A DNA stretch of 64,000 nucleotides from Methanomassiliicoccales archaeon (GCA_040768245.1 JAXGNA010000005.1:36716-100715); one strand, 5' to 3'. Shown: positions 2,604-51,324, counted from the stretch's first letter. Translations and numbers: made by a program. The notes: generated from the sequence alone by a model not told the origin.

Positions 2604-3905
2604 ATGGTGCAGCCCAGCGCGCAGCGCGAAAGGGAGATAGGGCTGGAGGTCTTTTTTTCCGACACCGCCGGCAGCGGCGGCAAGCTCAAGGCGGAGGCGG
2701 AGGACTTCATCGTGGACGAGGTGTCCAAGTACCCGCCGGAGAAACCGGATGGCAAGGTCTGCGTGGCTCGGGTCACCGCCACCAACTGGGAGACCAACCG
2801 TCTCGTCCGCCACATGTCCAAATCGCTGGGGATATCCCGCAACCGCATCGGGTTCGCAGGGACGAAGGATAAGCGCGCGGTGACCTCGCAGCTGATGTCC
2901 TTCGAGGCGCCCGTGGCCGACGTCATGGCCCTGCGGCTCTCGCAGGTCAAGGTGGAGGGCGGGTACATGGCCAAGCGCGGCATGACCATCGGAGACCTGG
3001 TCGGCAACAACTTCAGGATAAGGGTCCGGGACACCGTGCTCAGGGGCGAGGAGCTCCGTTCCTCGTTGCAGGGGACCGAATCATCCCTCAGGGAACTTGG
3101 CGGCTTCCCGAACTTCTTCGGGGTGCAGCGCTTCGGGACGGTGCGACCGGTGACCCACCTGGTCGGCAGGGCCATTGTCAAGGGCGACCTGGAACGGGCC
3201 GTGCTTCTCTACATCGGCAATCCAAGCGAGGAGGAGGACGAACGGTCCCGGGCGGCCCGCGAGGCTCTGCAGAGGGATAGGGATTACGCCGCGGCCCTGC
3301 GCGACTTCCCCTGGAAGCTGACGTTCGAAAGGATGGTCATCGGTTTCCTGGACCGCAACCCGGGTGATTTCGCCGGGGCGATATGCGTTCTGCCGCCGAA
3401 CCTGCAGATGATGTTCGTGCATGCCTACCAGTCATACCTTTTCAATCTGATCCTATCGGAACGGATGCGCCGCGGGATCCCATTGAACGCGCCGATCGTC
3501 GGCGACGTGGTGCTCCCGGCGGACAAGGATGGGAATCCCGATCATGACAAGCAGGTGCCGGTCACCAAGACCAACCTGGACCTGGTCGAGCGCCAGGTGC
3601 GGGACCGCCGGGCATTCGTCTCCGCTACCCTGTTCGGCTCGGAATCGGTGCTTGCCGAGGGAGAGATGGGCGAGATCGAGCGGGCGGCCATAGCCAAGGA
3701 AGGCCTTTCGCCAAAGGACTTCCTGGTGCCGGCCATACCGCATTGCTCCTCGCGCGGCTCACGACGCGAACTGGTCTGCGAGTACCGCGACCTTAGATTG
3801 GAGATCGCGGACGATGAGTACACCGCCTCCTTCTTCCTTGGAAAGGGCTGCTACGCCACGGTGCTCCTCCGGGAGCTCATGAAATCGGACATCTCCGATT
3901 ATTGA
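2604..3905 (+). CDS. truD: tRNA pseudouridine synthase D (TruD/Pus7 family)
   Basis: ATG at 2604. The 5' part of track ORF 1968-3905 is a spurious off-frame read-through over lig. TruD signature FAGTKDKRAVTSQ is present; product is 433 aa. Confidence 0.9.
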   Translation: MVQPSAQREREIGLEVFFSDTAGSGGKLKAEAEDFIVDEVSKYPPEKPDGKVCVARVTATNWETNRLVRHMSKSLGISRNRIGFAGTKDKRAVTSQLMSFEAPVADVMALRLSQVKVEGGYMAKRGMTIGDLVGNNFRIRVRDTVLRGEELRSSLQGTESSLRELGGFPNFFGVQRFGTVRPVTHLVGRAIVKGDLERAVLLYIGNPSEEEDERSRAAREALQRDRDYAAALRDFPWKLTFERMVIGFLDRNPGDFAGAICVLPPNLQMMFVHAYQSYLFNLILSERMRRGIPLNAPIVGDVVLPADKDGNPDHDKQVPVTKTNLDLVERQVRDRRAFVSATLFGSESVLAEGEMGEIERAAIAKEGLSPKDFLVPAIPHCSSRGSRRELVCEYRDLRLEIADDEYTASFFLGKGCYATVLLRELMKSDISDY

Positions 3906-8310: not shown

Positions 8311-8610
8311 TTGAAAAACCGGTCGACAAAGATGGTACGTAGCGATGCTGGATATGGTGAAGATAAGTTATATATACCCTGTGACACAATAACATTATTT
8401 GTCCGACGAAAGTCGGACGGACGGGATGCAAAAATGAGGCGAAATGAGGGTTCGCTCTCGGAACAGATGTTGGATGGTCACGCTGTTGAGTGGATGAAGA
8501 CCCACACCATCAGGGACCTGAAGCTGATGGCCTTCGAATTGGACCAGCAGGGACAGGAGACCATGGAGCTGTGGGACCTCATCAATGACCTGAAGATCAT
8601 GAGCCGTTAG
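8311..8610 (+). CDS. Hypothetical small protein (weak call, AT-rich flank of tRNA-Gly)
   Basis: ORF only. No recognisable motif; the first half has non-coding-like composition. An internal Met (MRRNEGSL...) is a more plausible start. Confidence 0.3.
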   Translation: MKNRSTKMVRSDAGYGEDKLYIPCDTITLFVRRKSDGRDAKMRRNEGSLSEQMLDGHAVEWMKTHTIRDLKLMAFELDQQGQETMELWDLINDLKIMSR

Positions 8611-8760: not shown

Positions 8761-8835
8761 GCAGGTGTAATCTAGCGGTCAGGATTTTAGCCTTCCAAGC
8801 TAACTACTCGGGTTCGAATCCCGACACCTGCACCA
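8761..8835 (+). tRNA. tRNA-Gly (anticodon UCC), CCA encoded
   Basis: Hand-folded cloverleaf. Acceptor GCAGGTG/CACCTGC, D stem ATCT/GGAT, anticodon stem TTAGC/GCTAA with loop CTTCCAA (TCC), T arm TCGGG-TTCGAAT-CCCGA, discriminator A at 8832, CCA at 8833-8835. Confidence 0.9.
8814..8833. repeat. attL: 20-bp direct repeat (3' end of tRNA-Gly)
   Basis: TCGAATCCCGACACCTGCAC is identical to 15027-15046. Confidence 0.85.
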
Positions 8836-22221: not shown

Positions 22222-22317
22222 CCCCTTCTTCCTTTTTCAAGCAGTATAAAACCGAATTGCCCGTCCAGTGATAGCCAAATTATTTATCCGCATAGATGAA
22301 TATCACTCGATAAAGGG

Positions 22318-25300
22318 GTGGGCATGAGACGTTCAGCGGTAGCCGTGCTGTTATTCCTATTCGTCATCAGCGCGGTCGCTCCATCCCTAGCGGTCCCTTC
22401 CTGGCCTACCGAACCGACCGCCCTCTATGAACATACTGGCATCGATGATGGGTCATCACTTTTCGACGAGTTCGCTCAGACCCTGATCATACCGGGAGAG
22501 CCGAGGGATAGTGTGCTGGCCGACCTGAACAACGACACGCGCGAGGACCTTGCGGTCATTTACAAGGGCTCGACCTCCCTGGACGTGTTCTTTTTCGACC
22601 CGGCGATCGGGTTTTCGAACTCCAACCGGACCAGGATCGCGCTCCCTTACGAGATCACGGACCTGGCCATCGGGGACATGGATGGAGATACCAAACTGGA
22701 CATCGTGCTCGTTCTCAACGTCACCGCCCTCACCAACCTGGTCGTGCTATACCAATCCTCCAACTTCCAGATGGGAAGTTCATTCACGAAGCCCATCGAT
22801 TACCGCCCGTTGACGGTGAACGTGGGCAATTTCACTGGGTCCTCCCTACCGGAGATCGCGTTGACCGTAATGGCGGCCGGTGGTCCCAGGTTCCTGATCT
22901 ATGAGTGGTCGATCGGCACATACCAGTATTGGGTCGAACCATTGCCTCTGAATCCCGCACCTTTGAGCATGGTCAGGCCGAGCATGACCGAGATAGGCGA
23001 CCTGAACCAGGATGGGTTGAACGACCTGGTGATCGGAGACCGTACCTCAGGAAAGGTGGCCGGGTTCCTTAACCCGGGACATGGGGCGTGGGGTGCAAAC
23101 TATAGCACGTCCCGAAACCTTCCAACGACCCTTATGCTGGGCGACCTGGATGGCGACGGCTCATTGGAACTCACTGTGGCCGAAGAGGGTTTGGAGGACC
23201 CCCTGGTGACCGTTTGGGACTGCACGCCGACCGGATTCAGCGCCATCACGAACATTGATACAATATCGACGATGAACTCGCTCGCCGCCTTGAAATTGAA
23301 CACCGACCTAAGAATGGAGATAGCCGCCGCTTCGGCTGACAATAATGATATCAGCATTTTCAAGGCCGCCGCCTCCGGTAGCCTATCCTACCCGGAATCC
23401 ATCAATTTCCCTGTGCCAAGAATGCCGGTGAGCATCTTCGCCGCGGACATGAACGGGGATGGCGAAGATGATATCTTGCTTACATCCTGCCCATCGAACG
23501 GCTACGGCGCGATCTCCGTATACCTCCAGAGCGGGGACACGCTGTCCAACGCTAATGACAATCAACCGCTTCCTGTCACCCAGGTCAACTCGGCCACCGT
23601 CGGCGACATGGATGGGGACGGAGGCAACGAGATCATCACCTATGACGGATCGGGGCCGATCATATGGTTCTCCAGGGAAGGCTTCCCGGAGCTGAGGTGG
23701 GTCCCCGCCCCGCTCAACGTTTCGGTCATGGAATGCGTGGACCTGAACGGGGACGGGCGAGAGGACCTGGTCATGGTCCAATCGGCTCCGGCGCAGGTTA
23801 CTGTCTGGTATGGCGATCCGGATGTGCTGAAAACCGATCACGCGATAACCAGCGTCTCCCTGGCATATTCGATGTCCCAGGGACTGTCGATGACCGCGGG
23901 GGACCTGGACGGTGACGGTGACCTGGACCTGGCGATCGGAGGGGACGGGGCGGTGGACATTTTCTGGAATTCCGGGACCGCTGCGGCATACTCTCAAGGG
24001 CAGCGATTCACGCTTACGCTTGCCGGGGCTTCAGTGACGTCATTGACCACCATCCGGATACAGGGATCCGCCCACAATGACGCCCTGCGGGACCTGGCCC
24101 TGGTCAACGGGACAACTTCGAGAACGGAGATCTACTTCCAGCAGACGACAGGGGCCAGGTTCGTTACCAGTGACCGCTTGTTGCTAACGCCTGCGGCCGG
24201 CCTGTTCGGTTTGACCGCAAAGGACCTGAGCGGGGACGGCAGAGAGGACCTGTTGGCCGGGATCTCTCAGGCGTTGCGCCTCCTGGTCCAGAACCCTGGG
24301 TACACCAAGGGATTCCTGGATGGACAGACCCCGGAGGACCTGCCGGTGCCGGAAAGGCCCCGTTCTTTCACCATAGGCGATCTGGACGATGACGGTGCAC
24401 CGGAGATCGGTCTGATGACCGCCAATTCCACGATCGAGGCTTATGAGAGGACCGGCATGGGTTTCGTGCTCTTGACCAGGCAGACCGCAGGCTCCTCCCC
24501 GGCATTCCTTTCATTGGCGGACATGGACGATGATGGCAAGCAGGATATCGTGGTGGTCTCCTCCTTGTCACGGACGACCTCCATTTACTACCAGAACAAC
24601 TTCGCCCCGACGGCCAAGGGTTCCGTGGACGGCAGCGGACATCTGGAAGGGGATTACCTGACGTTCAACGCCACCCTCAGTACGGATGGCCGGTCCGATC
24701 GGGACCGCCTTACCTACATCTGGGACTTCGGGGATGGAGGCACCAATACCACCACCGAGAAGCTGACCACGCATCGTTACCTGCGCAACGATACCTTCCA
24801 AGTGGTCCTGACCGCAAGGGACCCCGCCGGCCTGACGAACCATACATCCTTCCAGGTGAGCGTGGGCGATAAAGGACCCTCGGCCTCGCTGACCTATGAT
24901 GGGACGACCTTGTTCGAAGGAACCCCGGTCCAGTTCAGGGACAACAGCACCTCCTTTCCGGATACGATAGACAAATGGCGATGGGCGTTCGGGGACGGAG
25001 GTACGTCTGAGCTAAGGAACCCCTCGCACACCTATGCCCATAACGGCAATTACACCGTCACCCTGACGGTCTGGGACAAGGATGGGACGAACGATACTGC
25101 CAGCATCGCGGTCATCATCTTAGATACCGCCCCCACCGCCCAGTTCTCCTTTTCCCCTTCATCGCCTTTGGAGGGACAGAACGTCACCTTCACTGACGCT
25201 TCCTCGCCCGGGGTCGACAGCATAGAGAGCTGGTACTGGGACTTCGGGGATGGCCGAACTTTGACCGCTTACGGTGGGTCGGTGCAGCACATCTATACCG

Positions 25301-26742
25301 ATAACGGGACCTACCTGGTGAGCCTGACCATAACCGACGCGGACGGTAGCAACGATACCATCACCAGAACCGTTGTGGTCCTGGACACCAGCCCGGTCAT
25401 CTCGAGCCTTTACGTGGTCGGCGGTTCCACCTCGTTCAAGGAGGGGGACGACGTGGAGTTCAAGGTGAACGCCTCGCCGCTGTTCGGGACGATCGTCCGT
25501 TACCAGTGGGATTTCCAGACCGAGACCTTCCAGGCAGATGAGACGACGAACGTGTACACGGCCATCCACTCCTACAACTTCTCGGGAACGTATCGCGTGA
25601 CCGTGCGGGTCTGGGACATCGATAGCTACACCGATACCTCCATTCAGATCACCATAACCGATCCAGCCCCCGTGCCGGATTTCACTGCGTCCACCAACGC
25701 CGCCAACCGTACCGTTTCCTTCTCCGCCGCCCTGACCCTGGACACGGAGAACGACATGCCCTTGCTGGAGTACCGCTGGTTCTTCGGTGACGGGGAGCAG
25801 AGCGAGTGGTCCAATTCGTCCAAGGCCAAACATACCTATGATTTGGATGGGATCTACTCCGTGCGTCTAGAGGTGCGGGACGACCACAACCCCGCGGTCA
25901 TGCGCACCAAGAACGTGACCATCGACCTTCTTCCGCCAATAATATCCATGGACGATCCGGTGCTGAAGGCTATCGTCGGCGAGCCCACCCTGGTCCGGGT
26001 CAACGTGACCGACCTGGTGGGCATCGGCTCGGTCAAACTGGAGTACACCATCGGAAATGTCACTCGTACCGTGGTAATGACCCATGAGGGCGGCGGCATC
26101 TACTTCGCCCAGATCCCCGCGCAGAACCGCACCATGGAGCTTCAGTATCGCATCATCGCCGAGGACATGGCAGGTCACTCCGCCACCACCGAGCAGTTCA
26201 CCCTTGCCCTGGAATACGAGGACCCCTCGCTGTTCATCTACACGTCCCTGATACTGCTGACGGCCTTCCTGGTCATCATAATCTACCTGTTCCTGTCCCG
26301 GCCGATCGTGGACGAGGTGTTCGTGATGTACCATGATGGAACGCTCCTAGCGCATCAGACCAGGCGCCTCAAGCCGGGGATGGATGACGAGATATTGGGC
26401 GGAATGCTCATCGCCCTGCAGAACTTCGTGCGCGATTCGTTCAAGGACGAGAACTCGACCGTGCTGAGGCGCATGGACTTCGGAGAACGGAAATTGCTGG
26501 TGGAGCGCAAGGACGACTTCTTCATGGCCGTGGTGCTCAGCGGCAAGCGCGCCGGGAACGCCGCGCAGCGTATGCTCAGGGTCCTCGACAACATCGAGGA
26601 GGGCTACGCCCCGGTGCTCAGGGAGTGGGACGGAGACCTGGAGAAGGTGCGCGGCATAAGGGATGAAACGAAGCCGATGTTCTCCCGCGCCAACCCCCTG
26701 GACCTTCTGAAACGCAAGGAAGGGGAAGACGATTCGATTTAA
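22318..26742 (+). CDS. Giant surface protein: FG-GAP/VCBS repeats, PKD modules, one TM helix, cytoplasmic Roadblock/longin-like tail
   Basis: Signal/anchor MRRSAVAVLLFLFVISAVAPSLA. At least 11 Asp-rich FG-GAP-type loops (GDMDGDTKLDIV, GDLNQDGLNDLV, ADMNGDGEDDIL, VDLNGDGREDLV, GDLDGDGDLDLA, ADMDDDGKQDIV ...). Five PKD-like modules (WDFGDGGT.., WAFGDGGT.., WDFGDGRT.., WDFQTETF.., WFFGDGEQ..). TM helix LFIYTSLILLTAFLVIIIYLFL (about 26224-26295). 148-aa tail. Confidence 0.85.
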   Translation: MGMRRSAVAVLLFLFVISAVAPSLAVPSWPTEPTALYEHTGIDDGSSLFDEFAQTLIIPGEPRDSVLADLNNDTREDLAVIYKGSTSLDVFFFDPAIGFSNSNRTRIALPYEITDLAIGDMDGDTKLDIVLVLNVTALTNLVVLYQSSNFQMGSSFTKPIDYRPLTVNVGNFTGSSLPEIALTVMAAGGPRFLIYEWSIGTYQYWVEPLPLNPAPLSMVRPSMTEIGDLNQDGLNDLVIGDRTSGKVAGFLNPGHGAWGANYSTSRNLPTTLMLGDLDGDGSLELTVAEEGLEDPLVTVWDCTPTGFSAITNIDTISTMNSLAALKLNTDLRMEIAAASADNNDISIFKAAASGSLSYPESINFPVPRMPVSIFAADMNGDGEDDILLTSCPSNGYGAISVYLQSGDTLSNANDNQPLPVTQVNSATVGDMDGDGGNEIITYDGSGPIIWFSREGFPELRWVPAPLNVSVMECVDLNGDGREDLVMVQSAPAQVTVWYGDPDVLKTDHAITSVSLAYSMSQGLSMTAGDLDGDGDLDLAIGGDGAVDIFWNSGTAAAYSQGQRFTLTLAGASVTSLTTIRIQGSAHNDALRDLALVNGTTSRTEIYFQQTTGARFVTSDRLLLTPAAGLFGLTAKDLSGDGREDLLAGISQALRLLVQNPGYTKGFLDGQTPEDLPVPERPRSFTIGDLDDDGAPEIGLMTANSTIEAYERTGMGFVLLTRQTAGSSPAFLSLADMDDDGKQDIVVVSSLSRTTSIYYQNNFAPTAKGSVDGSGHLEGDYLTFNATLSTDGRSDRDRLTYIWDFGDGGTNTTTEKLTTHRYLRNDTFQVVLTARDPAGLTNHTSFQVSVGDKGPSASLTYDGTTLFEGTPVQFRDNSTSFPDTIDKWRWAFGDGGTSELRNPSHTYAHNGNYTVTLTVWDKDGTNDTASIAVIILDTAPTAQFSFSPSSPLEGQNVTFTDASSPGVDSIESWYWDFGDGRTLTAYGGSVQHIYTDNGTYLVSLTITDADGSNDTITRTVVVLDTSPVISSLYVVGGSTSFKEGDDVEFKVNASPLFGTIVRYQWDFQTETFQADETTNVYTAIHSYNFSGTYRVTVRVWDIDSYTDTSIQITITDPAPVPDFTASTNAANRTVSFSAALTLDTENDMPLLEYRWFFGDGEQSEWSNSSKAKHTYDLDGIYSVRLEVRDDHNPAVMRTKNVTIDLLPPIISMDDPVLKAIVGEPTLVRVNVTDLVGIGSVKLEYTIGNVTRTVVMTHEGGGIYFAQIPAQNRTMELQYRIIAEDMAGHSATTEQFTLALEYEDPSLFIYTSLILLTAFLVIIIYLFLSRPIVDEVFVMYHDGTLLAHQTRRLKPGMDDEILGGMLIALQNFVRDSFKDENSTVLRRMDFGERKLLVERKDDFFMAVVLSGKRAGNAAQRMLRVLDNIEEGYAPVLREWDGDLEKVRGIRDETKPMFSRANPLDLLKRKEGEDDSI

Positions 26743-26760
26743 ATATCTCGTAATTCTAGG

Positions 26761-27489
26761 GTGGGCGGAATGATCACCGTGGAGCAGGCGGTCATAGTGC
26801 TAGTGCTTTGCGCGGCGCTCTCTGCGCTATCGTGGAAGCTGGGGCTGTTGACCGCCGATGGCAGCTTGGCCTCGTTCGGAGTGGGCATGGTCCTCGGCGT
26901 CTTGGGGGGCATAGGGTGGCTCCTGCTGCTGGTCCTCTTCGCCTTCATCGGGTTCCTGGTCACCAAGTTCAAGATGGAACTGAAGATCAAGAAGGGGGTG
27001 CAGGAAGGCAAGAAGGGAGAGAGGAACTACCGTAACGTCCTGGCGAACGGAGCGGTGCCCATGGCCATCGCCTTGTTGACGTCCCTGGTGGGCTGGGAGG
27101 GCGAGCTTCCCGCGTTGATCTACATGAGCGCCGTCTGCGTCGCCGCCGCGGACACGACGGCAAGCGAGCTGGGCGTGCTCTCCGACCGGACGTACATGAT
27201 CACCAATTTCAAGCGCGTGCCGCCGGGAGTGGACGGCGGGGTCTCGCTTTACGGAACGGGATGGGCCATCGCCGCCTCGGCGTTCGCCGCCCTGGCCGGA
27301 TGGATAGTGATACTGGGAACCTGGCCTTCGCTCCTGCTCCTCATACCGGTATCCATGGGCGTCCTGGGATGCTTCATCGACAGCGTGATCGGCGCTACGC
27401 TGGAAACGAGGGGATGGGTGACCAAGCTGTGGAACAACATCACCTCCATGGCCTTGGGCGCGGCCATCGCCCTGCTCGTTCTTTTATAA
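26761..27489 (+). CDS. Integral membrane protein, DUF92/TMEM19 (TIGR00297-like) family
   Basis: 242 aa, multi-pass. Motifs KKGERNYRNVLANG, AAADTTASELG and GVDGGVSLYGT are typical of DUF92. Confidence 0.7.
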   Translation: MGGMITVEQAVIVLVLCAALSALSWKLGLLTADGSLASFGVGMVLGVLGGIGWLLLLVLFAFIGFLVTKFKMELKIKKGVQEGKKGERNYRNVLANGAVPMAIALLTSLVGWEGELPALIYMSAVCVAAADTTASELGVLSDRTYMITNFKRVPPGVDGGVSLYGTGWAIAASAFAALAGWIVILGTWPSLLLLIPVSMGVLGCFIDSVIGATLETRGWVTKLWNNITSMALGAAIALLVLL

Positions 27490-27537
27490 AGAAACCATTA
27501 ATAGAGCCAGGCCGCCTATTGTCACCAGGGGTTTCGG

Positions 27538-27996
27538 TTGGCGGAAAAGGAAGCCTTCGGCGCGTACCTGGTCTTGAAGGGCAACGCCCATTCCGCGTCC
27601 GAATACCTTCGCGAACTGGTCAGACAGGGCTTCGACCCCATCCTGGTGTCCCCGGTCGATGCGGAATTGCCCGCCGATCCCGAGATAGAGGTCCTGGAAC
27701 CGGAGAGGTCCGACCGGGAGGTCCATACGGGGAACAAGGTCCAGCTCCTGCGTGCCCTCCTGGCGCACATTCAGAGAGGTGAGAAGAAGGCGGTGGTCAT
27801 CCTCGACCTGCAGGTGCTTAAGCAAGGTGGAGGATTCCACGACCTCACCGACCTCATAGGAAGGTTGTACGAAGAGGCCTGTGTGAACCGGGGCCTGATC
27901 CTCATGTTCGCAGATCCCACTGGATTCACCAATCAGGAGATGGCCTTCCTGGAAAGGGAGACCTCGGTCATCGAGCGACCGGAGCAGCTTTCCTAG
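27538..27996 (+). CDS. Stand-alone DUF835-like (degenerate RecA/KaiC-fold) protein
   Basis: GAYLVLKGNAHSASEYLRELVRQGFDPILVS ... KKAVVILDLQVLKQGGGFHDLTDLIGRLYEEACVNRGLILMFADPTGFTNQEMAFLERE follows the DUF835 pattern. No Walker A and no membrane domain. Ends with TAG. Confidence 0.6.
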   Translation: MAEKEAFGAYLVLKGNAHSASEYLRELVRQGFDPILVSPVDAELPADPEIEVLEPERSDREVHTGNKVQLLRALLAHIQRGEKKAVVILDLQVLKQGGGFHDLTDLIGRLYEEACVNRGLILMFADPTGFTNQEMAFLERETSVIERPEQLS

Positions 27997-28046
27997 GGGC
28001 TGAGAAACAGTTATATACAATGGTCATTTTCACTGGGCTCAAGGAT

Positions 28047-28169
28047 GGTTTGACGGCCATCGCGGCGGGGATACGCCTGGTCTCGTCCGATCCCAGAAGC
28101 TAAGCCCGCCCGCGTTCCCTGTGTTACTGTGGTGCGCGAGCCCACGGGAAGCCCGGAACGCTGTCAGCC
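28047..28169 (+). rRNA. rrf: 5S rRNA, copy 1
   Basis: GGTTTGACGGCCATCGCGGCGGGGATACGCCTGGTCTCGTCCGATCCCAGAAGCTAAGCCC...GGGAAGCCCGGAACGCTGTCAGCC. Helix I pairing TTGACGGC/GCTGTCAG, conserved CCGATCCCAGAAGCTAAGCC loop C/helix III region, T-rich tract downstream. Confidence 0.85.
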
Positions 28170-28282
28170 TCCTTACTTTTCATCTCATTTTTTCTATAGA
28201 TGTATTCTCATTCAGCGTTCCCGCCGTTCCAGAAAAATGAAAATTTGGGAAAAGGTTTGGAACGAAAGGGTTTGCTGCTCAC

Positions 28283-31200
28283 CTAGGGGTGTATACCGCC
28301 CTCGTTGTACTCGGCCAGCAACTCCGCCAGGTCGTGGGCCATCTGCTGGTCCTCTGCCGAGAGCGGGTCACCGATCTGGTGGACTTCCAGGAAGTCCGTG
28401 GCATCCTCGATGACGCCGACGTACTTCGCCGGGGCCCCCCACATCTCATCGTTCAGCATGGCGGCCATGTACTGGTGCGCCAGGACGATGATCATATCGC
28501 CCGCGGGCGGGGTCCAGAACACCTCCATCCAGGTCATGCCGGAATCGAAGAACATGGCGTCAGGGCTTATTCCGACCCATGCATCCCCGTGGTTCTTCCA
28601 GTATCCCTGGGTGGCGGCGTAGTACCAGATGTCCACGCACACTCTAGCCGTATCGTTCACCCACATGTCCCACTCGACCGGCCCGGCCTGTCCGTAGGCG
28701 GTGGCAACGTTGCAGATCTTGTCGCCCTCATAGTCCTCAGGTATCGTGTACTCGTAGGTGAACTCCCACCACTCTCCGACCTCCAGGATGCCATCCTCGT
28801 ATCCTTCGTAGTCATGGAGCCAGAAGGTCTCATTGAGCAGGGAGTCGTACACGTGCACATTGTACAGAGGCACGTTGCCGCAGTTGGTGACGTTCACCGT
28901 GTAGATCAGTTTACCGCCGGGTATCGCCATTCCGCTGTGGTTGCCCTCATTGTAATCGGTCAGGACTTCCGCCAGCATCAAGGCGTACTCACGGTCCTCG
29001 CCCTGCGGGTTGCTGCCTACGGGGTGCTCCAGCAGGAACTCCTCGGCATCCTCGATGAATCCATCGTAGACGTCCGGGGCGCCCCACTTCAGGTCGTTCA
29101 GCTTGGCCGCCAGGTACTGGTGGGCCAGGATGATCGAGGCATCTCCCTTCGGAGCGGTGTTGAACACCTGGATGAAGCTCAGTCCACCAGGGAACTTAGT
29201 GAAATCAACCGCCTGCGTGCCGCCTATCGAGAACGGTGCATACGGGCAGATCTCCTCCCAGGCGCTCAGGTGGTTCTTCCAGTATCCCTGGGTGTGCGAC
29301 TGATACTCCTCCTCGACGTCCCACCACACGCTCTTGGTCACGTTGATGCACGGCAGCACCTCGAAGTTGGTGAAGTTGAAGGAGTACACAGCTCCGCTGG
29401 TGACCGGTCCGAACTCATGCTCGGTGTCGGTCGTCGGCAGCCATCCGACTATCTCCTCTTCACCTACCTTGTACTTACCAGGCCCGAGATCGAACCAGGT
29501 GTGGCAGCCGCAGGTTCCGGTGTAGTTGGTGTCGATTAGGTCCCAATCCTCGCCGTTCCACTTGTACAGGTAGACCTCCCAACCTTCGATCGGGGAGTCG
29601 TCATCGCTCAGTCCGTCACCGGTGAGGTCCTCAAGCTTGCAGACGGTGATGGCCACCAGCTTGAAGTTCAGGAAGGTGACGGATTCGCACCCACCTGACT
29701 CATCGATGGTAACCATCTGAGTGACACCACCATTGGTGTTGGCCCAGCCATCAGGCAGAACCTCCTCGACGGTGTAGCTGCCCAGCTCCAGGTCCTCGAA
29801 GCAGACCTTTCCGTCCGCTCCAGTGACGCCGGAGTCGATAGGCTCCTCACCCTCGGAGATAGCGCCCATGTACAGGTTGATAGTGACGCCGGATACCGCC
29901 GGTTCGCCCTCGTCCCAGTTACCGTCGCCGTTAAGATCGTCGTACTTGAACACGCAGATCTTGCCGAGGCGGATGTTCAGGAAGGTGACCACTTCGGTTT
30001 CCCCAACAACATCGACGGTGACCTCCTGGGTCAGAGAACCATCGGTGTACCAGCCTTCGAGCATGATCTCCTCGACCGTGTACAATCCGAAATTGAGACC
30101 ATTGAAGCAGACCTTTCCGTCCGCTCCAGTGACGCCGGAGTCGATAGGCTCCTCACCCTCGGAGATAGCGCCCTTGTACAAGTTGACAGTGACGCCTGGC
30201 ACCGCCGGTTCTCCCTCGTCCCAGTTACCGTCGCCGTTAAGATCGTCGAATTTGTATACGCATATATTACCAAGAGGATAGTTGTAGAAGGTCATCGCAA
30301 TCTCTTGGTCGGCGGTGGTCAAAGTAATGTATTTCGGCTCCGCACTAGTATAGTTCGAATTTGGCGCGGATACTTCAACCATCTTGTAATTGCCGAGCAT
30401 CAGGTTCTCCCAGAACTCGGTATATCCATCGGAACCGGTGACCTTGGTGCCCAGAGAGTTCCATGCTCCGTTCTGGTAGAACAGTTCGAACGTCCAGCCA
30501 ACACCCGGAGAACGGTCGGTAGTGGTGGTCAGATCACCATCGTTATCGATGATCTTGTGCGCCCTTATCTTCCCGGGCATGGAGTTACCGAAATCGATCC
30601 CGGTGTGGACGAGCGCTGTGCCATTAACTGTTACGGTGTACGTAGCGTTGGTCGGATAGGTCTGGGTCCACCCTAGTTTCTGAACTTCGGATATAATGTA
30701 TATTCCCCACGGGACCTGAGAGAAACTGTAGCTCCCATCGGATGCCGTGGTGGTTTCCATATGGATCGGGAATCCGCCAAAGGACGTTCCATTGAGTATT
30801 ATGGTCCAATTGGACAGACCACTCTCACCTGGATCCCTTATGTGGTTAGAGTTGGCATCGTTGAACTTCATTCCGGAGATGCTTCCCGCAGCATATGTGA
30901 CAGGGATGCTCTGGGTCTGTGCGCTCGTTCCAGTGAACACCAGGGACAGAGCTACCTGCAGGGACGCCCCTGGGAAGTAAGCCGCACCGTAGTAGTAGCC
31001 CATCGGTACGCCCTGCCCAGGAGTGGTCTGTACATTGCTGTAGAATGCCGTCTCCGCCACATGAGCCTGGAAGTAGATGTATATCGATGTTCCGACCGGC
31101 ACGGTGAAGAAGCCTGCCGAGAACATGTAGTAGTTCTGTATCGTCTGTCCGCTCATTCCGAAGAACTGGTTCGATAATGTCGGTACGATCGGGTCAACCA

Positions 31201-31378
31201 CGTTCATGGTGTTGGTGACCCCTTCGGATTGGGCAGGGAACTGTACCGTCCAGTCCGCCCTGTTGTATCCCCACAGAACTTCAGCATCTATACCATATGC
31301 TGTTTTTCCCTTGTTGAAATGATCATATACGGAATCAAGTTGTGGTGACGAATTATTCGTTCCTGTGTCGTGCGTCAA
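28283..31378 (-). CDS. Large adhesin-like surface protein with SdrD-B/Cna-B-type modules and duplicated C-terminal modules (body of gene; see 31439-31597)
   Basis: 1031-aa ORF beginning at a TTG. Several modules of the form kFnD.NgNG..D.GE.G..GvTv.L...G....tTTd.dG.Y.F..l..G.Y.V.E, e.g. ICVYKFDDLNGDGNWDEGEPAVPGVTVNLY...GADGKVCFNGLNFGLYTVEE. Two TQGYWKNH...LAHQY.AA.LN..WGAP..Y.G.IEDA..FL modules. Confidence 0.8.
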   Translation of the reverse strand: MTHDTGTNNSSPQLDSVYDHFNKGKTAYGIDAEVLWGYNRADWTVQFPAQSEGVTNTMNVVDPIVPTLSNQFFGMSGQTIQNYYMFSAGFFTVPVGTSIYIYFQAHVAETAFYSNVQTTPGQGVPMGYYYGAAYFPGASLQVALSLVFTGTSAQTQSIPVTYAAGSISGMKFNDANSNHIRDPGESGLSNWTIILNGTSFGGFPIHMETTTASDGSYSFSQVPWGIYIISEVQKLGWTQTYPTNATYTVTVNGTALVHTGIDFGNSMPGKIRAHKIIDNDGDLTTTTDRSPGVGWTFELFYQNGAWNSLGTKVTGSDGYTEFWENLMLGNYKMVEVSAPNSNYTSAEPKYITLTTADQEIAMTFYNYPLGNICVYKFDDLNGDGNWDEGEPAVPGVTVNLYKGAISEGEEPIDSGVTGADGKVCFNGLNFGLYTVEEIMLEGWYTDGSLTQEVTVDVVGETEVVTFLNIRLGKICVFKYDDLNGDGNWDEGEPAVSGVTINLYMGAISEGEEPIDSGVTGADGKVCFEDLELGSYTVEEVLPDGWANTNGGVTQMVTIDESGGCESVTFLNFKLVAITVCKLEDLTGDGLSDDDSPIEGWEVYLYKWNGEDWDLIDTNYTGTCGCHTWFDLGPGKYKVGEEEIVGWLPTTDTEHEFGPVTSGAVYSFNFTNFEVLPCINVTKSVWWDVEEEYQSHTQGYWKNHLSAWEEICPYAPFSIGGTQAVDFTKFPGGLSFIQVFNTAPKGDASIILAHQYLAAKLNDLKWGAPDVYDGFIEDAEEFLLEHPVGSNPQGEDREYALMLAEVLTDYNEGNHSGMAIPGGKLIYTVNVTNCGNVPLYNVHVYDSLLNETFWLHDYEGYEDGILEVGEWWEFTYEYTIPEDYEGDKICNVATAYGQAGPVEWDMWVNDTARVCVDIWYYAATQGYWKNHGDAWVGISPDAMFFDSGMTWMEVFWTPPAGDMIIVLAHQYMAAMLNDEMWGAPAKYVGVIEDATDFLEVHQIGDPLSAEDQQMAHDLAELLAEYNEGGIHP
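29798..30251 (-). repeat. In-frame 306-nt tandem duplication inside the adhesin gene
   Basis: A 70-nt block is identical at 29798-29867 and 30104-30173 (offset 306 nt = 102 codons). High identity continues for roughly 80 more nt. Confidence 0.8.
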
Positions 31379-31438
31379 GATATACTTGAATCCTATTAGA
31401 TCTCCTTCGTGATAACCAGCCAGGTTTCCATTGACCTA

Positions 31439-31597
31439 GTTCATTTGGACAGGGTCCCAAGCATATAATTCCGAGGTCCACTTGTCTCCTGCGGCCTCCA
31501 CACCTGTGGGTATGGCAACCAGCATTGCAGAAGAGACCATTATAAATGCCAAAATAAGGACAATGGTCTTCGTGAACCTGCGGGTAGTTACACCTAT
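31439..31597 (-). CDS. Upstream in-frame segment of the adhesin gene encoding its signal peptide, separated from the body by one TAG (31436-31438)
   Basis: Translation (ATA)GVTTRRFTKTIVLILAFIMVSSAMLVAIPTGVEAAGDKWTSELYAWDPVQMN-TAG-VNGNLAGYHEGDLIGFKYI-(TTG 31378). Same frame as the 1031-aa ORF, with the upstream in-frame stop TAA at 31622-31624. The only canonical starts in this segment are TTG 31552 and ATG 31540/31525, all inside the h-region. Confidence 0.5.
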
Positions 31598-32039
31598 GTT
31601 AGTATTCGTATAGTTCCCCCCTTAAGCGCTTACTAAGATGTTTTTTATCGGGGTGCGATCCCCCTAAGCTCGACATCGGTGAGAAGTAGGTAAAGCCGGC
31701 ACGTCTGTCGACTTGTAAGTCGGTATCGTTTTTGATATCGAGTTATTGTATGTTATTGCCTTGTAGTTGCGGTATATTAACGTTTTTGGAACAAATGTGA
31801 AATCGTAAATGATAATGTACATCGTCTAATCTTGATGCTGGATGGTTAAAATTAGGCGTGATAACGAGTGTCATTGATAAAGATTATTTTTTCGATCATG
31901 AATAATTTAGTATGATTATTGTAATTGATATCGACAAGGCAAAATTAGCATTAAATATTATAGTATATATTATAATAAATAGAATAATAACTCAATCCTA
32001 AAGATTAAATATCATATCCATAATGCCTTGAATCAGAAT

Positions 32040-32162
32040 GGTTTGACGGCCATCGCGGCGGGGATACGCCTGGTCTCGTCCGATCCCAGAAGCTAAGCCC
32101 GCCCGCGTTCCCTGTGTTACTGTGGTGCGCGAGCCCACGGGAAGCCCGGAACGCTGTCAGCC
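32040..32162 (+). rRNA. rrf: 5S rRNA, copy 2 (identical to copy 1)
   Basis: A 125-nt block at 32038-32162 is base-for-base identical to 28045-28169. The upstream flank differs (AT-rich) and so does the downstream flank. Confidence 0.85.
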
Positions 32163-32354
32163 ATTCTAATTCTTTATCTCCTTCTCGAATACCAGATTTT
32201 TAATCGCTGTGTTCTATCAATGCAATAGGATTAATACCAATCAGGAACCTAGTCCTCTCCGGAGTTGAAGGTGGTATAGCTGGACGCGGACCAGATCTTC
32301 CTGATCGCCCTTCTTGTCGTTCTCGGCATAGTCATCTATCTCGAGCTAAGGTTC

Positions 32355-33080
32355 ATGCGCTCCCGCAACAAGGAGTATATCGAGCGGATGATGGACAAGG
32401 ACGATGCGTACAACACCCTCGCCACCACCAAGGCCATCGCCGCCTCCCTCAAACAAAAGGGGAGGGACACCAAGGAAGCCGACATGGTCATGATCCAGGC
32501 CGATAATGCTTACAAACGCAACAACTACATCGCTGCGAGGGACCAGGCCAAGCGTGCCCGCGAACTCTTGATGAAGGCGCCTATGTTGGAGGTCGCCGCT
32601 CCCAGGTCTGCCGAGACCGTCTCAGAAGAGCAGCCCGAAGAGGAGCATAAGATGGTGCACGAGGTCAAGAAGCTCGAGCCGCACATGCTCGAGTCGCGAT
32701 TTATCATCAATGCCTGCCGTGGTAGGATCGAGACCGCTGAGGGCTCAGGCAAGGACGTCCTCAAAGCCAAGGACGCTCTGGCCAGGGCGGAAAAGTGCTT
32801 TGAGGATAAGAAATACGATGAGGCCCTGCGCGAAGGCCTTCGGGTCCGGAAGATGCTTGGTGAAGAACCGTCGGAACCGGAAGCGGTCAAGGAGGCGGTG
32901 ATCGTCAAGGTCCCCAAGCCAGAGAGGAAGTGCGAGAAGTGCTCCAATACCATCAGCAACGATGATGTTTTCTGCCGCAAGTGCGGCGCGCCGGTGGTAG
33001 TAAAACGCGCCTGTGCCTATTGCCGCGCCGATCTGGAGACTGGCGACATATTCTGTCCAAAATGCGGCCGCAAGGCCTGA
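32355..33080 (+). CDS. Coiled-coil protein with C-terminal double zinc ribbon (probably membrane-anchored; true start likely near 32265-32280)
   Basis: C-terminus CEKCSNTISNDDVFCRKCGAPVVVKRACAYCRADLETGDIFCPKCG, with Lys/Glu/Ala-rich helical repeats before it. The in-frame upstream sequence encodes the TM helix IFLIALLVVLGIVIYL (see finding). Confidence 0.6.
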   Translation: MRSRNKEYIERMMDKDDAYNTLATTKAIAASLKQKGRDTKEADMVMIQADNAYKRNNYIAARDQAKRARELLMKAPMLEVAAPRSAETVSEEQPEEEHKMVHEVKKLEPHMLESRFIINACRGRIETAEGSGKDVLKAKDALARAEKCFEDKKYDEALREGLRVRKMLGEEPSEPEAVKEAVIVKVPKPERKCEKCSNTISNDDVFCRKCGAPVVVKRACAYCRADLETGDIFCPKCGRKA

Positions 33081-33133
33081 AGGCCACAGGCTGTAACATT
33101 AATACATCAAGACCAATTATCCCGCGGAATCAA

Positions 33134-33904
33134 ATGATCCTGGTGAAATTGGGCGGAAGCGTCATAACCGACAAGGGCCGGTACCGCACCTTCGATCCGG
33201 AGACCGCCGGTCGGCTGGCGGAGGAGATCGCCAGGACCGGGCAGGACGTGATGGTCGTTCACGGCGCCGGGTCCTTCGGGCACATGCTGGCCAAGGAGCA
33301 CCGGCTCCATCTGGGCATAACCGATGATTCTCAATTGCTGGGTGCGTCGCTGGTCATGTCCGATGTGCGCGAGCTTGACCTGGAAGTATGTCGAATAATG
33401 TCCGCCAAGGGCCTGCGGGCGGTTCCGTTACCGCCGGCCTCCTGCGCGGTGATGAGCGATGGCCAGCTGAAACATCTGGATCTGAACGTCTTCAAGTCCT
33501 ACCTCGAGCTGAGCATGGTCCCGGTGACCTTCGGCGATGTCGTCCGGGATGAGGTGCGAGGGCTGAGCATATGCTCAGGAGATCAGCTCATGGCCGCCCT
33601 GGCCAAGGAGTTCCGGCCTAGCAAGGTGATATTCGTTACCGACGTCGATGGCGTGTTCACCGCCGACCCCACGCAAGATCCCCAGGCGGAACTGATAGGG
33701 ACGGTCGACCAGAAGGTGCTTGATTCTTTACCACGAACCGAACGGAACGTGGACGTCACCGGAAGCATATTCGCCAAGATACGTTACATGATCGACATGG
33801 CGTCGCTGACCGGTGAATGCCTTGTACTGAACGGAAAAGTGCCCGGAAGGCTGGAGGCGGCCGTCCGCGGTGACGATGTGATCGCCTCCAGGGTGATTTC
33901 ATGA
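33134..33904 (+). CDS. ipk: Isopentenyl phosphate kinase
   Basis: Starts MILVKLGGSVITDK (amino-acid-kinase fold), with VVHGAGSFGH and FVTDVDGVF motifs. The 5' extension of track ORF 32981 overlaps the previous gene and is rejected. Confidence 0.85.
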   Translation: MILVKLGGSVITDKGRYRTFDPETAGRLAEEIARTGQDVMVVHGAGSFGHMLAKEHRLHLGITDDSQLLGASLVMSDVRELDLEVCRIMSAKGLRAVPLPPASCAVMSDGQLKHLDLNVFKSYLELSMVPVTFGDVVRDEVRGLSICSGDQLMAALAKEFRPSKVIFVTDVDGVFTADPTQDPQAELIGTVDQKVLDSLPRTERNVDVTGSIFAKIRYMIDMASLTGECLVLNGKVPGRLEAAVRGDDVIASRVIS

Positions 33905-34959
33905 AGAAGATCGAGAGGCGCAAATCGGACCACATCGAAGTGACGCTCAGGGAGAAGGTAGTGCCTGATTACGACTACTGGTCGGACGTCAAGCTGGTCC
34001 ACCGCGCTTTACCTGAGGTGAACATGGACGACATCGACACTTCGGTGACCCTGTTCGGGAAGAGGCTGGAGATGCCCCTGGTCATTACGGCCATAACTGG
34101 CGGGTTCCCCCTGGCCAAGAAGATCAACCAGAACCTGGCGGAAGCATGCGCTGAAGCGGGCGTGGGACTGGGCGTGGGCAGCCAACGGCCGGCCATCGAG
34201 AACGGGGACGACGGGACGTATTCCGTGGTCAAGGATTACGACGTTCCGCTGGTCATCGGCAACGTAGGAGCGCCCCAGCTGGTGAAGCAGAAGAGAAAGA
34301 AGGCGTTCAGCGTGGAGGACGTGCTCCGGGCGCAGGAGGTGGTCGGAGCGGACATCATGGCCGTGCATCTCAACTTCCTCCAGGAGGTGGTCCAGCCGGA
34401 GGGCGACCTCAACGCCGAAGGATGCCTTGATGGCATACGAGCGATAGCACGGGAGGGTCCGACCATGGTCAAGGAGACCGGGGCCGGGATATCCAGGGAG
34501 ACTGCGCTATTGCTCAAGGGCACCGGCATAAGGGGGATGGACGTCTCCGGGGTCGGGGGTACCAGCTTCGCCGCGGTGGAGATGTATAGGGCCGAATCGC
34601 AGGATAACCGGATGGCCTCCGCATTGGGAAGGACGTTCTTCGACTGGGGCATTCCCGCGCCGGCCGCGGTGCTGGAAGCGGACGTCGGCCTGGAGATCGT
34701 CGCCAGCGGCGGGGTGGACGACGGACTTCGCATGGCCAAGGGATTGGCCATCGGGGCAAATGCCGCCGGTTGCGCACGGGCGGTCCTGGCGGAGGCCATG
34801 GAATCCAGCCAGGCCGTGCTGGAAAAGATCAATGTCATGAAGGCCGAACTCAAGGCGGCCATGTTCCTGACCGGCTGCGCCAGCGTGGACGAGCTGCGCC
34901 AGCGCCGGGTCATCATTAGCGGGCGGACCGCCGACTGGCTGACCGCCTCGGAGGACTGA
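33901..34959 (+). CDS. fni: Isopentenyl-diphosphate delta-isomerase, type 2 (FMN-dependent)
   Basis: RKSDHIEV N-terminus, TIM-barrel FMN motifs ITAITGG, VKETGAGIS, ASGGVDDG. ATGA overlap with ipk. Confidence 0.9.
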   Translation: MKKIERRKSDHIEVTLREKVVPDYDYWSDVKLVHRALPEVNMDDIDTSVTLFGKRLEMPLVITAITGGFPLAKKINQNLAEACAEAGVGLGVGSQRPAIENGDDGTYSVVKDYDVPLVIGNVGAPQLVKQKRKKAFSVEDVLRAQEVVGADIMAVHLNFLQEVVQPEGDLNAEGCLDGIRAIAREGPTMVKETGAGISRETALLLKGTGIRGMDVSGVGGTSFAAVEMYRAESQDNRMASALGRTFFDWGIPAPAAVLEADVGLEIVASGGVDDGLRMAKGLAIGANAAGCARAVLAEAMESSQAVLEKINVMKAELKAAMFLTGCASVDELRQRRVIISGRTADWLTASED

Positions 34960-40581: not shown

Positions 40582-41540
40582 AGATAAGAGGAAGCAACAT
40601 AGTGGTGACCGGATGCGCGGGGTTCATCGGAAGTCATTTGACGGACGCGTTGCTGGCCATGGGCAATCACGTGGTGGGCGTGGACAACCTCAGCGCCGGA
40701 CGCCAGGAGTTCCTGGAGAACTCCAGGGGATACCAGGACTTCCGGTTCGTGCAGGCCGACCTGTTGAACGATGACCTGCGGCCGATATTCAAGGGCGCGG
40801 ACGCGGTGATGCACCTGGCCGCCAATCCTGATGTGCGTTCCGGGGCCAAGGACACACTGTCGCACTATAAGCAGAACATCGAGGTCACCTACAAGGTGCT
40901 GGAGGCCATGAAAGAGACCGGGGTGAAGGACATCCTTTTCCCGTCGACCTCCACCGTCTATGGCGAGACCACGGTCATCCCGACCCCGGAGGAGTACGGC
41001 CCATTGGTGCCCATCTCCGTCTACGGGGCGACGAAGCTTGCCTGCGAGGCGCTGATCTGCTCCTACGCCCATTCCTTCGATATGGGCGCGGTGATCTTCA
41101 GGTTCGCCAACGTGGTGGGGACCAGGAGCACTCACAACGTCCTGCACGACTTCATAAAGAAGCTGAGGGCCGACCCCGGCCGGCTGGAGATACTCGGCTC
41201 CGAACCGGGCACCACCAAATCGTACGTGCACGTGGAGGATTGCGTGCGCGGCATGATCATCGGCGCGGAGTACGCCAGGAACAAGGTCGAGATCTTCAAC
41301 CTTGGCTCGAACGACCGCATGTCGGTGAAGGATATCGCCGACACGGTGGTCGAGGTCATGGGGCTGCGCGGAGTGCGTTACGAGTGGACCGGCGGCGTCC
41401 AGGGCGGACGAGGCTGGATCGGGGACGTGAGGAACATGCTGCTCTCCTCGGACAAGCTGCGCTCCTACGGCTGGGAGCCGACCATGAACAGCTCGCAGTC
41501 CATCAAGAAGGCGGTGCGGGAGATAGTTCAGAGCGCTTAG
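40578..41540 (+). CDS. NAD-dependent sugar epimerase/dehydratase (SDR family)
   Basis: VVTGCAGFIGSH Rossmann motif and catalytic YGATK. Ends with TAG. Confidence 0.85.
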   Translation: MKIRGSNIVVTGCAGFIGSHLTDALLAMGNHVVGVDNLSAGRQEFLENSRGYQDFRFVQADLLNDDLRPIFKGADAVMHLAANPDVRSGAKDTLSHYKQNIEVTYKVLEAMKETGVKDILFPSTSTVYGETTVIPTPEEYGPLVPISVYGATKLACEALICSYAHSFDMGAVIFRFANVVGTRSTHNVLHDFIKKLRADPGRLEILGSEPGTTKSYVHVEDCVRGMIIGAEYARNKVEIFNLGSNDRMSVKDIADTVVEVMGLRGVRYEWTGGVQGGRGWIGDVRNMLLSSDKLRSYGWEPTMNSSQSIKKAVREIVQSA

Positions 41541-51212: not shown

Positions 51213-51324
51213 CCCGACTTAGCTCAGTCTGGCTAGAGCGGCTGACTGTAGTGGGATCCCGGCTTGCCGGTCCTCAGCCGCCGATATCAGCAGGTGCCCG
51301 GTTCAAATCCGGGAGTCGGGACCA
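51213..51324 (+). tRNA. tRNA-Tyr (anticodon GUA) with a 34-nt intron at 37/38, CCA encoded
   Basis: C1-G72 acceptor CCCGACT/AGTCGGG (archaeal Tyr identity pair), D arm GCTC-AGTCTGGCTA-GAGC. Anticodon stem GCTGA/TCAGC with loop CTGTAG|intron|A (GTA at 51248-51250). T arm CCCGG-TTCAAAT-CCGGG, A73, CCA at 51322-51324. Confidence 0.85.
51252..51285 (+). other. tRNA-Tyr intron (boundaries inferred)
   Basis: TGGGATCCCGGCTTGCCGGTCCTCAGCCGCCGAT lies between G37 and A38. It contains the internal hairpin CCGG-CTTG-CCGG. Confidence 0.6.

Follow-up and report, generated by a model that had tools for sequence, protein, structure and literature searches.

The window, by which we mean the whole 64-kb stretch of DNA analysed here, contains a typical archaeal set of housekeeping genes, including those for ATP-dependent DNA ligase, TruD, archaeosine synthase, isopentenyl-phosphate kinase, IDI-2, GGPP synthase, RadA, RadB, XPD, GGGP synthase, aIF2-alpha and the CCA-adding enzyme. 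The initial annotation had noted a resemblance to Methanomassiliicoccales, which is supported by several proteins of the window that are deposited in identical form as "Methanomassiliicoccales archaeon" or "anaerobic digester metagenome". A 6.2-kb element of low GC content (46–50%) is integrated at the 3' end of the tRNA-Gly(TCC) gene (positions 8814–15046); its ends are identical 20-nt direct repeats TCGAATCCCGACACCTGCAC (8814–8833 and 15027–15046), its cargo includes a tyrosine integrase (8836–10128) and an IS110-family transposase (11966–12733), and its integration site is empty in the conspecific contig L013.

A long adhesin-like gene lies between two 5S rRNA genes, on the strand opposite to them. 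The 5S genes are on the plus strand at positions 28049–28169, downstream of the adhesin gene, and 32042–32162, upstream of it (Rfam RF00001, 82 bits each), and they are 99% identical to each other over 128 nt. The same arrangement is found with both 5S copies at loci L002, L003, L005 and L006 and with the upstream copy at L004, L007 and L008. The two copies in the window carry the same strain-specific change of two bases (CCCTGTGTT versus CCATGTGGT), a pattern suggestive of concerted evolution.

On the minus strand, a 1031-aa ORF runs from a TTG at 31378 to a TAG stop at 28285–28283, and upstream of this TTG, which is a mechanical call and no real start, the frame stays open as far as a TAA at 31624–31622, with a sole in-frame TAG at 31438–31436. 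It had been proposed that this TAG separates a signal peptide from the 1031-aa adhesin body, and all the features involved are indeed present. In the direction of reading, they are a signal peptide of 39 codons counted from a probable ACG start (31493–31609, minus strand), the first 18 codons of the mature protein (AGDKWTSELYAWDPVQMN, 31439–31492, minus strand), which are all that truncation would leave of it, the TAG itself (31436–31438, minus strand), in which a Trp codon has been lost through a G>A change at 31437, and a gene body of 1050 codons followed by the terminal TAG stop (28283–31435, minus strand).

The peptide encoded upstream of the in-frame TAG reads GGNYTNTNIGVTTRRFTKTIVLILAFIMVSSAMLVAIPTGVEA up to the predicted cleavage site and AGDKWTSELYAWDPVQMN after it (...TTRRFTKTIVLILAFIMVSSAMLVAIPTGVEA and AGDKWTSELYAWDPVQMN from the n-region on), and the peptide 3' of the TAG codon (...PVQMN-X-) is VNGNLAGYHEGDLIGFK, i.e., VNGNLAGY.... 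By inspection, we recognise a basic n-region (RRFTK), an h-region TIVLILAFIMVSSAMLVAIP whose hydrophobic core is some 20 residues long, and a c-region TGVEA↓AG with a V-E-A↓A site, which appears across orthologues in the AxA-type variants VEA↓A, VDA↓A, TQA↓A and AEA↓A. The signal peptide, including its n-region, is kept in the homologous loci, where the changes are synonymous and the indels are multiples of three, and this conservation indicates that the upstream open frame is not a chance frame. Judged by inspection and conservation, the upstream part can be read as a Sec-type signal peptide, and in strains with TGG its processing by signal peptidase is predicted to yield a protein that begins with AGDKWTSELYAWDPVQ....

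The initial annotation had also pointed out that no ATG, GTG or TTG precedes the n-region, with only an ATA at 31597–31595. This observation is correct, but the missing start is not a lesion, since a conserved ACG (31607–31609, minus strand) occupies the position at which other homologues have ATG. The ACG is present in seven of the nine Methanomassiliicoccales loci (the window, L002, L003, L004, L005, L007 and L008), with ATA at the same position in L006 and ATG, or Met, in L001, P0001 and P0300. In the window it stands 6 nt after a GGGGGG run resembling a Shine-Dalgarno sequence (31616–31621, minus strand), which follows directly on the in-frame TAA at 31624–31622. The G-run is conserved in all the Methanomassiliicoccales loci, and those with ACG share the order of a run of six or seven G, AAC or AAT, xAT and ACG, with an in-frame TAA just 5' of the G-run except in L007; in L001, the ATG lies 7 nt past the run. 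For comparison, other genes of the window have GGTG- or GGAGG-type motifs 5–9 nt before their starts. From the ACG to the n-region, the frame is open in all loci, with length differences that are multiples of three, and the beginning of P0300 (M-T-A-S-V-E-S...) can be set against L003 read from its ACG (T-T-A-S-N-D-S...).

Taken together, these comparisons suggest that ACG is probably the initiation codon of this adhesin family in most of these lineages. Loss of an ATG as a second lesion specific to the window was considered and rejected, as the ACG is conserved across lineages. The called starts of homologues fall inside the signal peptide (MVSSAM... or MLVAIP...), and an ACG start would lead gene callers to truncate these adhesins and to miss the signal peptide. 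Among the papers searched, none reported ACG starts in archaea.

Upstream of the coding region lies a conserved leader of about 140 nt (31622–31790, minus strand) with a TATA-like box TTAATATA (31780–31773, minus strand). The helices predicted in the leader are CTCGATATC/GATATCGAG, AAGTCGAC/GCCGGCTT and GGGGG/CCCC, with compensatory changes in 3 of the 29 predicted pairs, and no Rfam family matched the leader.

According to Pfam, the body of the protein comprises three SdrD_B stretches, three SpaA stretches and one DUF7507 domain (PF17210, 117 bits against a cut-off of 29.7; PF17802, 94.6 bits against 23.1; PF24346, 33.3 bits against 27). In NCBIfam, similarity to MSCRAMM and pilin models is weak and below threshold, with the named MSCRAMM models far under their cut-offs. 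Sequence profile searches of the N-terminal ~250 residues of the body gave no match in Pfam or PDB, and an AlphaFold2 model of the N-terminal domain of the homologue P0002, built from a three-sequence alignment, had a pLDDT of 34.6, which is too low for use. The C-terminus ...LAELLAEYNEGGIHP has neither a hydrophobic tail nor an anchor motif, and no cell-surface anchor (LPXTG, PGF-CTERM or a C-terminal transmembrane segment) was detected in Pfam, in NCBIfam or by inspection.

Tandem repeats occupy positions 29744–30292 and 28388–29181 (minus strand) within the gene body. The SdrD_B units are about 306 nt long and differ in number among strains (1084 versus 1186 aa), and an uncharacterised C-terminal module of about 215 aa is present in two copies with the motif QGYWKNH...AHQY.AA.LND..WGAP. 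In its Sec signal peptide, its SdrD_B and SpaA domains arranged in tandem and its strain-to-strain variation in repeat number, the protein resembles adhesins of the SdrD-type B-repeat and SpaA-fold (prealbumin-like) kind, such as MSCRAMMs and the adhesin-like proteins of methanogens. It differs from these adhesins in having no LPXTG or recognisable anchor, and in its N-terminal domain of ~250 aa, which has no sequence match in Pfam or PDB.

The comparison of homologues at the codon of the in-frame TAG gives a uniform picture: all 13 homologues examined have Trp here, and each of the nine homologous loci read as DNA (L001–L009) encodes it with TGG. Three near-identical copies from the same species, P0094 (L002), P0096 (L003) and P0097, read DPVQKN-W-VNGNLAGY and are ~99% identical to the window downstream of the codon; the Trp is also present in P0001, a 73%-identical fragment from L001, and in P0002 from Desulfurococcaceae. 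A scan of GTDB species representatives added five loci, from USCA_maxbin.116, an uncultured Methanomassiliicoccus sp., UBA8940, UBA472 and a Desulfurococcaceae MAG, and one metagenome scan added a single, more distant locus (L004), all with TGG. The search of a representative library at 50% identity was dominated by SdrD_B repeats and yielded four extra full-length homologues of the N-terminal domain (P0292, P0300, P0360 and P0429), in which the Trp is likewise kept, even at 35% identity (P0429, G-W-V-K-G-N-L). The surrounding motif is W-V/E/S/T-x-G-N-L, mostly GNLAGYxEGDL, and W35 is invariant in alignment A3.

In relation to its homologues, therefore, the window differs at this codon by one transition, G>A at 31437 (TGG>TAG). 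The homologues are single ORFs that run through the Trp, and the orthologue ORFs are intact and long (892 to >1216 codons), in agreement with the earlier view that the functional unit spans the TAG. The alignment of orthologues that the initial annotation had proposed as a check thus returned a sense codon, TGG or Trp, at this site in every case. A programmed pyrrolysine (Pyl) site would be expected to stay TAG across orthologues, and TGG throughout does not support a programmed site here.

Two readings of the TAG had been offered, a recent nonsense mutation and decoding as Pyl or by readthrough. The first is favoured by the TGG in nine of nine loci, the single G>A transition and the lack of any further decay, and we assign a probability of about 0.6 to a strain-specific TGG>TAG null allele, i.e., a young nonsense allele present in one strain.

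In the second reading, tRNA-Pyl or another form of readthrough would decode a neutrally acquired amber codon, so that the full-length exported protein persists. Pyl also occurs in Thg1 of Methanosarcina acetivorans. The supposition that Pyl is essentially limited to methylamine methyltransferases does not hold in this order, as 16 non-methyltransferase genes with in-frame TAG are predicted to encode Pyl proteins in Ca. Methanomethylophilus alvus (Borrel et al. 2014, PMC4153887), and for this reason readthrough here would be less novel than had been implied. Methanomassiliicoccales generally encode pylTSBCD, and in-frame TAG mutations have been argued to be stable under active suppression (PMC4153887). 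Also in favour of readthrough, the frame is undamaged both before and after the TAG, with no sign of decay. Since the host order is known for Pyl, leaky suppression is possible, and we counted this against the null-allele reading.

The use of TAG elsewhere in the window points the other way. Among the 38 Pfam-supported ORFs, the stop is TAG in 6, TAA in 7 and TGA in 25, i.e., TAG accounts for ~16%, and genes ended by TAG include those for an epimerase, creatininase, the CCA-adding enzyme and an AMP-binding ligase. Most of the TAG-ended genes have no back-up in-frame stop within 15 codons. Of the five other TAG stops listed previously, those at 41538, 46925, 55006 and 27994 do end called genes (epimerase, creatininase, the CCA-adding enzyme and a 152-aa DUF835-like gene, respectively), but the stop at 8608 belongs to nothing more than an unsupported ORF of 99 aa. 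At the terminus of the adhesin gene itself, CCC-TAG in the window and in L002 is replaced by CCC-TAA in L003 in the same local context. TAG is thus a working terminator in this genome, interchangeable with TAA at the adhesin terminus.

No stable or PYLIS-like RNA structure was found at and after the in-frame TAG (126 nt, −26.1 kcal/mol, z = −1.08 against shuffles), although such a downstream element is not obligatory for Pyl recoding. The window has just three tRNA genes, for Gly(TCC), Pro(TGG) and Tyr(GUA), the last of them with an intron, and none of the pyl genes (pylT, pylS, pylBCD) lies within the 64 kb. A candidate suppressor tRNA at 51213–51321 (plus strand) was rejected; it is the tRNA-Tyr(GUA) gene with a 37-nt intron and does not encode a CUA suppressor. 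This gene was found by Rfam and missed by ARAGORN. Searches with two PylRS queries, that of Ca. M. alvus (a 100% match to P0111) and P0224 of the Methanomethylophilaceae type, returned 3453 and 4738 matches, and among the best 120 of each none lay on the relatives' contigs of 1.29–1.89 Mb, i.e., those that carry close orthologues of the housekeeping genes of the window.

The affiliation of the host also bears on Pyl. The MALP population ("Lake Pavin cluster") is reported to be without the pyl biosynthesis operon, PylRS, tRNA-Pyl and Pyl methyltransferases, and it represents the same population as UBA248 and a close relative of UBA472 (Speth and Orphan 2018, PMC6147122). Over the shared flank, the window has ~81.6% identity to the orthologous 5S-adhesin locus of UBA472 and only 72% to that of the uncultured Methanomassiliicoccus sp., which would place the window nearer to the Pyl-less lineage.

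With TAG at this site in no homologue, a common TAG terminator that swaps with TAA, no downstream structure and a closest described lineage reported without pyl genes, we regard decoding of the TAG as improbable. The stronger proposition that the full-length adhesin is still made, through initiation at ACG and suppression of UAG by Pyl-tRNA or another suppressor in a lineage reported to be Pyl-less, seems to us most improbable; if true, one would be seeing, at its origin, a new extracellular protein that contains Pyl or is recoded in some other way.

The predicted Pyl proteins of Ca. M. alvus resemble the window gene in having an in-frame TAG where homologues have a sense codon, within an ORF that is homologous on both sides. 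However, Ca. M. alvus avoids the TAG terminator (1.6% of stops, PMC4153887), which implies constitutive suppression, whereas TAG ends ~16% of the supported genes in the window and the nearest lineage is reported without pyl; M. luminyensis, with 11.3% TAG stops, has no extra Pyl proteins predicted (PMC4153887). The programmed UAG sites of mtmB, mtbB and mttB are comparable in that UAG lies within an ORF of a member of Methanomassiliicoccales, but there the TAG is conserved in orthologues and catalytically required, whereas every homologue examined has TGG or Trp at the position of the TAG in the window.

The state of the gene body bears on the age of the lesion. Changes private to the window, relative to both L002 and L003, comprise 14 synonymous and 4 non-synonymous ones in the body, roughly the opposite of the ratio expected under neutral decay, and this indicates purifying selection on the gene up to the very recent past. 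Further decay of the body, as frameshifts or a relaxed dN/dS, was not found, and the frame is open for 1050 codons, which leaves three readings of the TAG: a very recent origin, an error or tolerance. Only a single contig carries the TAG allele: the 1031-aa ORF is confined to the source contig, searches for exact matches to the truncated peptides of 34 and 38 aa came back empty, and no other assembly was found that covers 31437 with the 5' haplotype of the window.

The initial annotation overlooked where the TAG stands relative to strain variation, namely on the border of a haplotype or recombination block. To the left of the gene (22283–28282), the window is 99.7% identical to L002 (21 mismatches), and over the gene body (28283–31435) the identity is 99.2% (26 mismatches in 3153 nt). 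Within 31436–31621, 47 of the 186 positions differ; in the intergenic region (31622–32000) identity is 31–72%, and over 32200–34800 it is ~95%. The divergent 5' haplotype block (31437–31621, minus strand) has the A of the TAG as its last variant, and this A ends a dense run of mismatches, after which the next 250 nt are 100% identical to L002. The segment 31445–31621 is 88.7% identical to UBA8940, another species, compared with 80.2% to L002 and L003. From 31447 downstream, all informative sites are of the L003 type save two private changes, AAG>ATG at 31443 and TGG>TAG at 31437.

The 5' block itself corresponds to a real haplotype, since contig L011 (like L002 from ERZ27257492, another assembly record) is 100% identical to the window over 31467–33177. 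It ends 29 nt before the TAG, and the strain-B contigs L010–L012 all end before the site. In the same record, the L002 contig, k141_267377, matches the window at 99.5–99.7% to the left of the junction and at ~95% over 32200–34800, and other contigs match the right side of the window at 99.96–100%. Both strain types co-occur in the ENA sample ERZ27257492. The TAG would be at or beside a recombination junction, and the 5' end of the gene appears, from these alignments, to be a hotspot at which strains, and even species, exchange haplotypes. The switch of k141_267377 at 31436/31437 would reflect either a large tract recombined between strains that co-occur or a contig that is a chimera of strains.

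The lack of decay, together with the sharp switch in similarity beside the TAG, would also fit a sequence error, either in the base call or consensus at 31437 or in a join of two strains at the haplotype junction, with a true gene that has TGG and is intact. The singleton status of the TAG allele, the purifying selection on the body, the co-occurrence of both strain types and the break of L011 so close to the TAG all agree with such an origin. On the other hand, assemblers based on de Bruijn graphs join k-mers that are present in the reads and invent no bases, and as no known haplotype has A at 31437, mixing could not have yielded it. Contigs in ERZ27257492 that are merged on the left and separate on the right are what is expected of a real genome close to a sister strain on the left only; the junction pattern as such fits both a real recombinant genome, related to the sister strain on its left and diverged on its right, and an assembler join of two strains. 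Both 5S copies in the window, including the one inside the L002-like tract, are of one two-base type unlike that of L002 and L003, which mildly favours a single real genome. On balance, we consider an artefact possible but rather unlikely.

The L002 locus shows a change of its own at the 5' end. At positions 3337–3343 of L002 (~31548 of the window), there is a T7 tract instead of T6 in the h-region of the signal peptide, so that signal peptide and body are in different frames, and the Shine-Dalgarno-like run of L002 has G7 instead of G6. As read from the contig, the T7 tract is an independent 5' disruption, and loss of the adhesin would thus recur.

Two independent 5' lesions within one species (the TAG and the T6/T7 frameshift of L002), a hypervariable 5' region of mosaic ancestry with a block shared across species, and a variable repeat copy number (1084 versus 1186 aa) could be read as signs of recurrent switching-off of the adhesin under selection, which would be advantageous in digesters, for example as an escape from viruses or grazers, with recombination restoring intact alleles. 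We find this highly improbable, as there are just two cases, T6/T7 is a short tract for slippage, and a point nonsense mutation is no reversible switch.

Returning to the young nonsense allele as the preferred reading, we propose the following course of events. A Methanomassiliicoccales archaeon of anaerobic digesters would, in one of its strains, have undergone a single G>A transition at 31437 that turned the conserved Trp codon TGG into an ordinary stop within a gene for a Sec-secreted adhesin-like protein. Translation would start at the conserved ACG, 6 nt past the G6 run, and, given the use of TAG in the window, would terminate after 57 codons, giving a product composed of the signal peptide and an 18-residue remnant. 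The 1050-codon body would either be unmade or be re-initiated yet not exported. The result would be a very young null allele segregating in the population, in which other strains of the species keep TGG.

In this respect, the gene resembles other nonsense null alleles of prokaryotic surface-protein genes, with a single-base early stop, intact conspecific copies and no other decay. It differs from typical cases in that its TAG borders on a recombined 5' haplotype block and in that the order to which the host belongs can in principle suppress UAG.

Overall, none of the candidate explanations amounts to a new kind of biology, and the finding is an ordinary one. In itself it matters little: an accessory surface-protein gene has acquired a nonsense codon in one strain, or its sequence contains an error. 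For the order, it means that the TAG at this locus should not count as evidence for Pyl outside methyltransferases and that, where a lone in-frame TAG is met in a Methanomassiliicoccales MAG, orthologues should be compared before recoding is invoked. Of more use are two by-products: the ACG start, if confirmed, would rank among the few documented examples of near-cognate initiation in archaea, and the 5S-adhesin-5S cassette, conserved across several species, appears to harbour a hotspot of 5' haplotype exchange.
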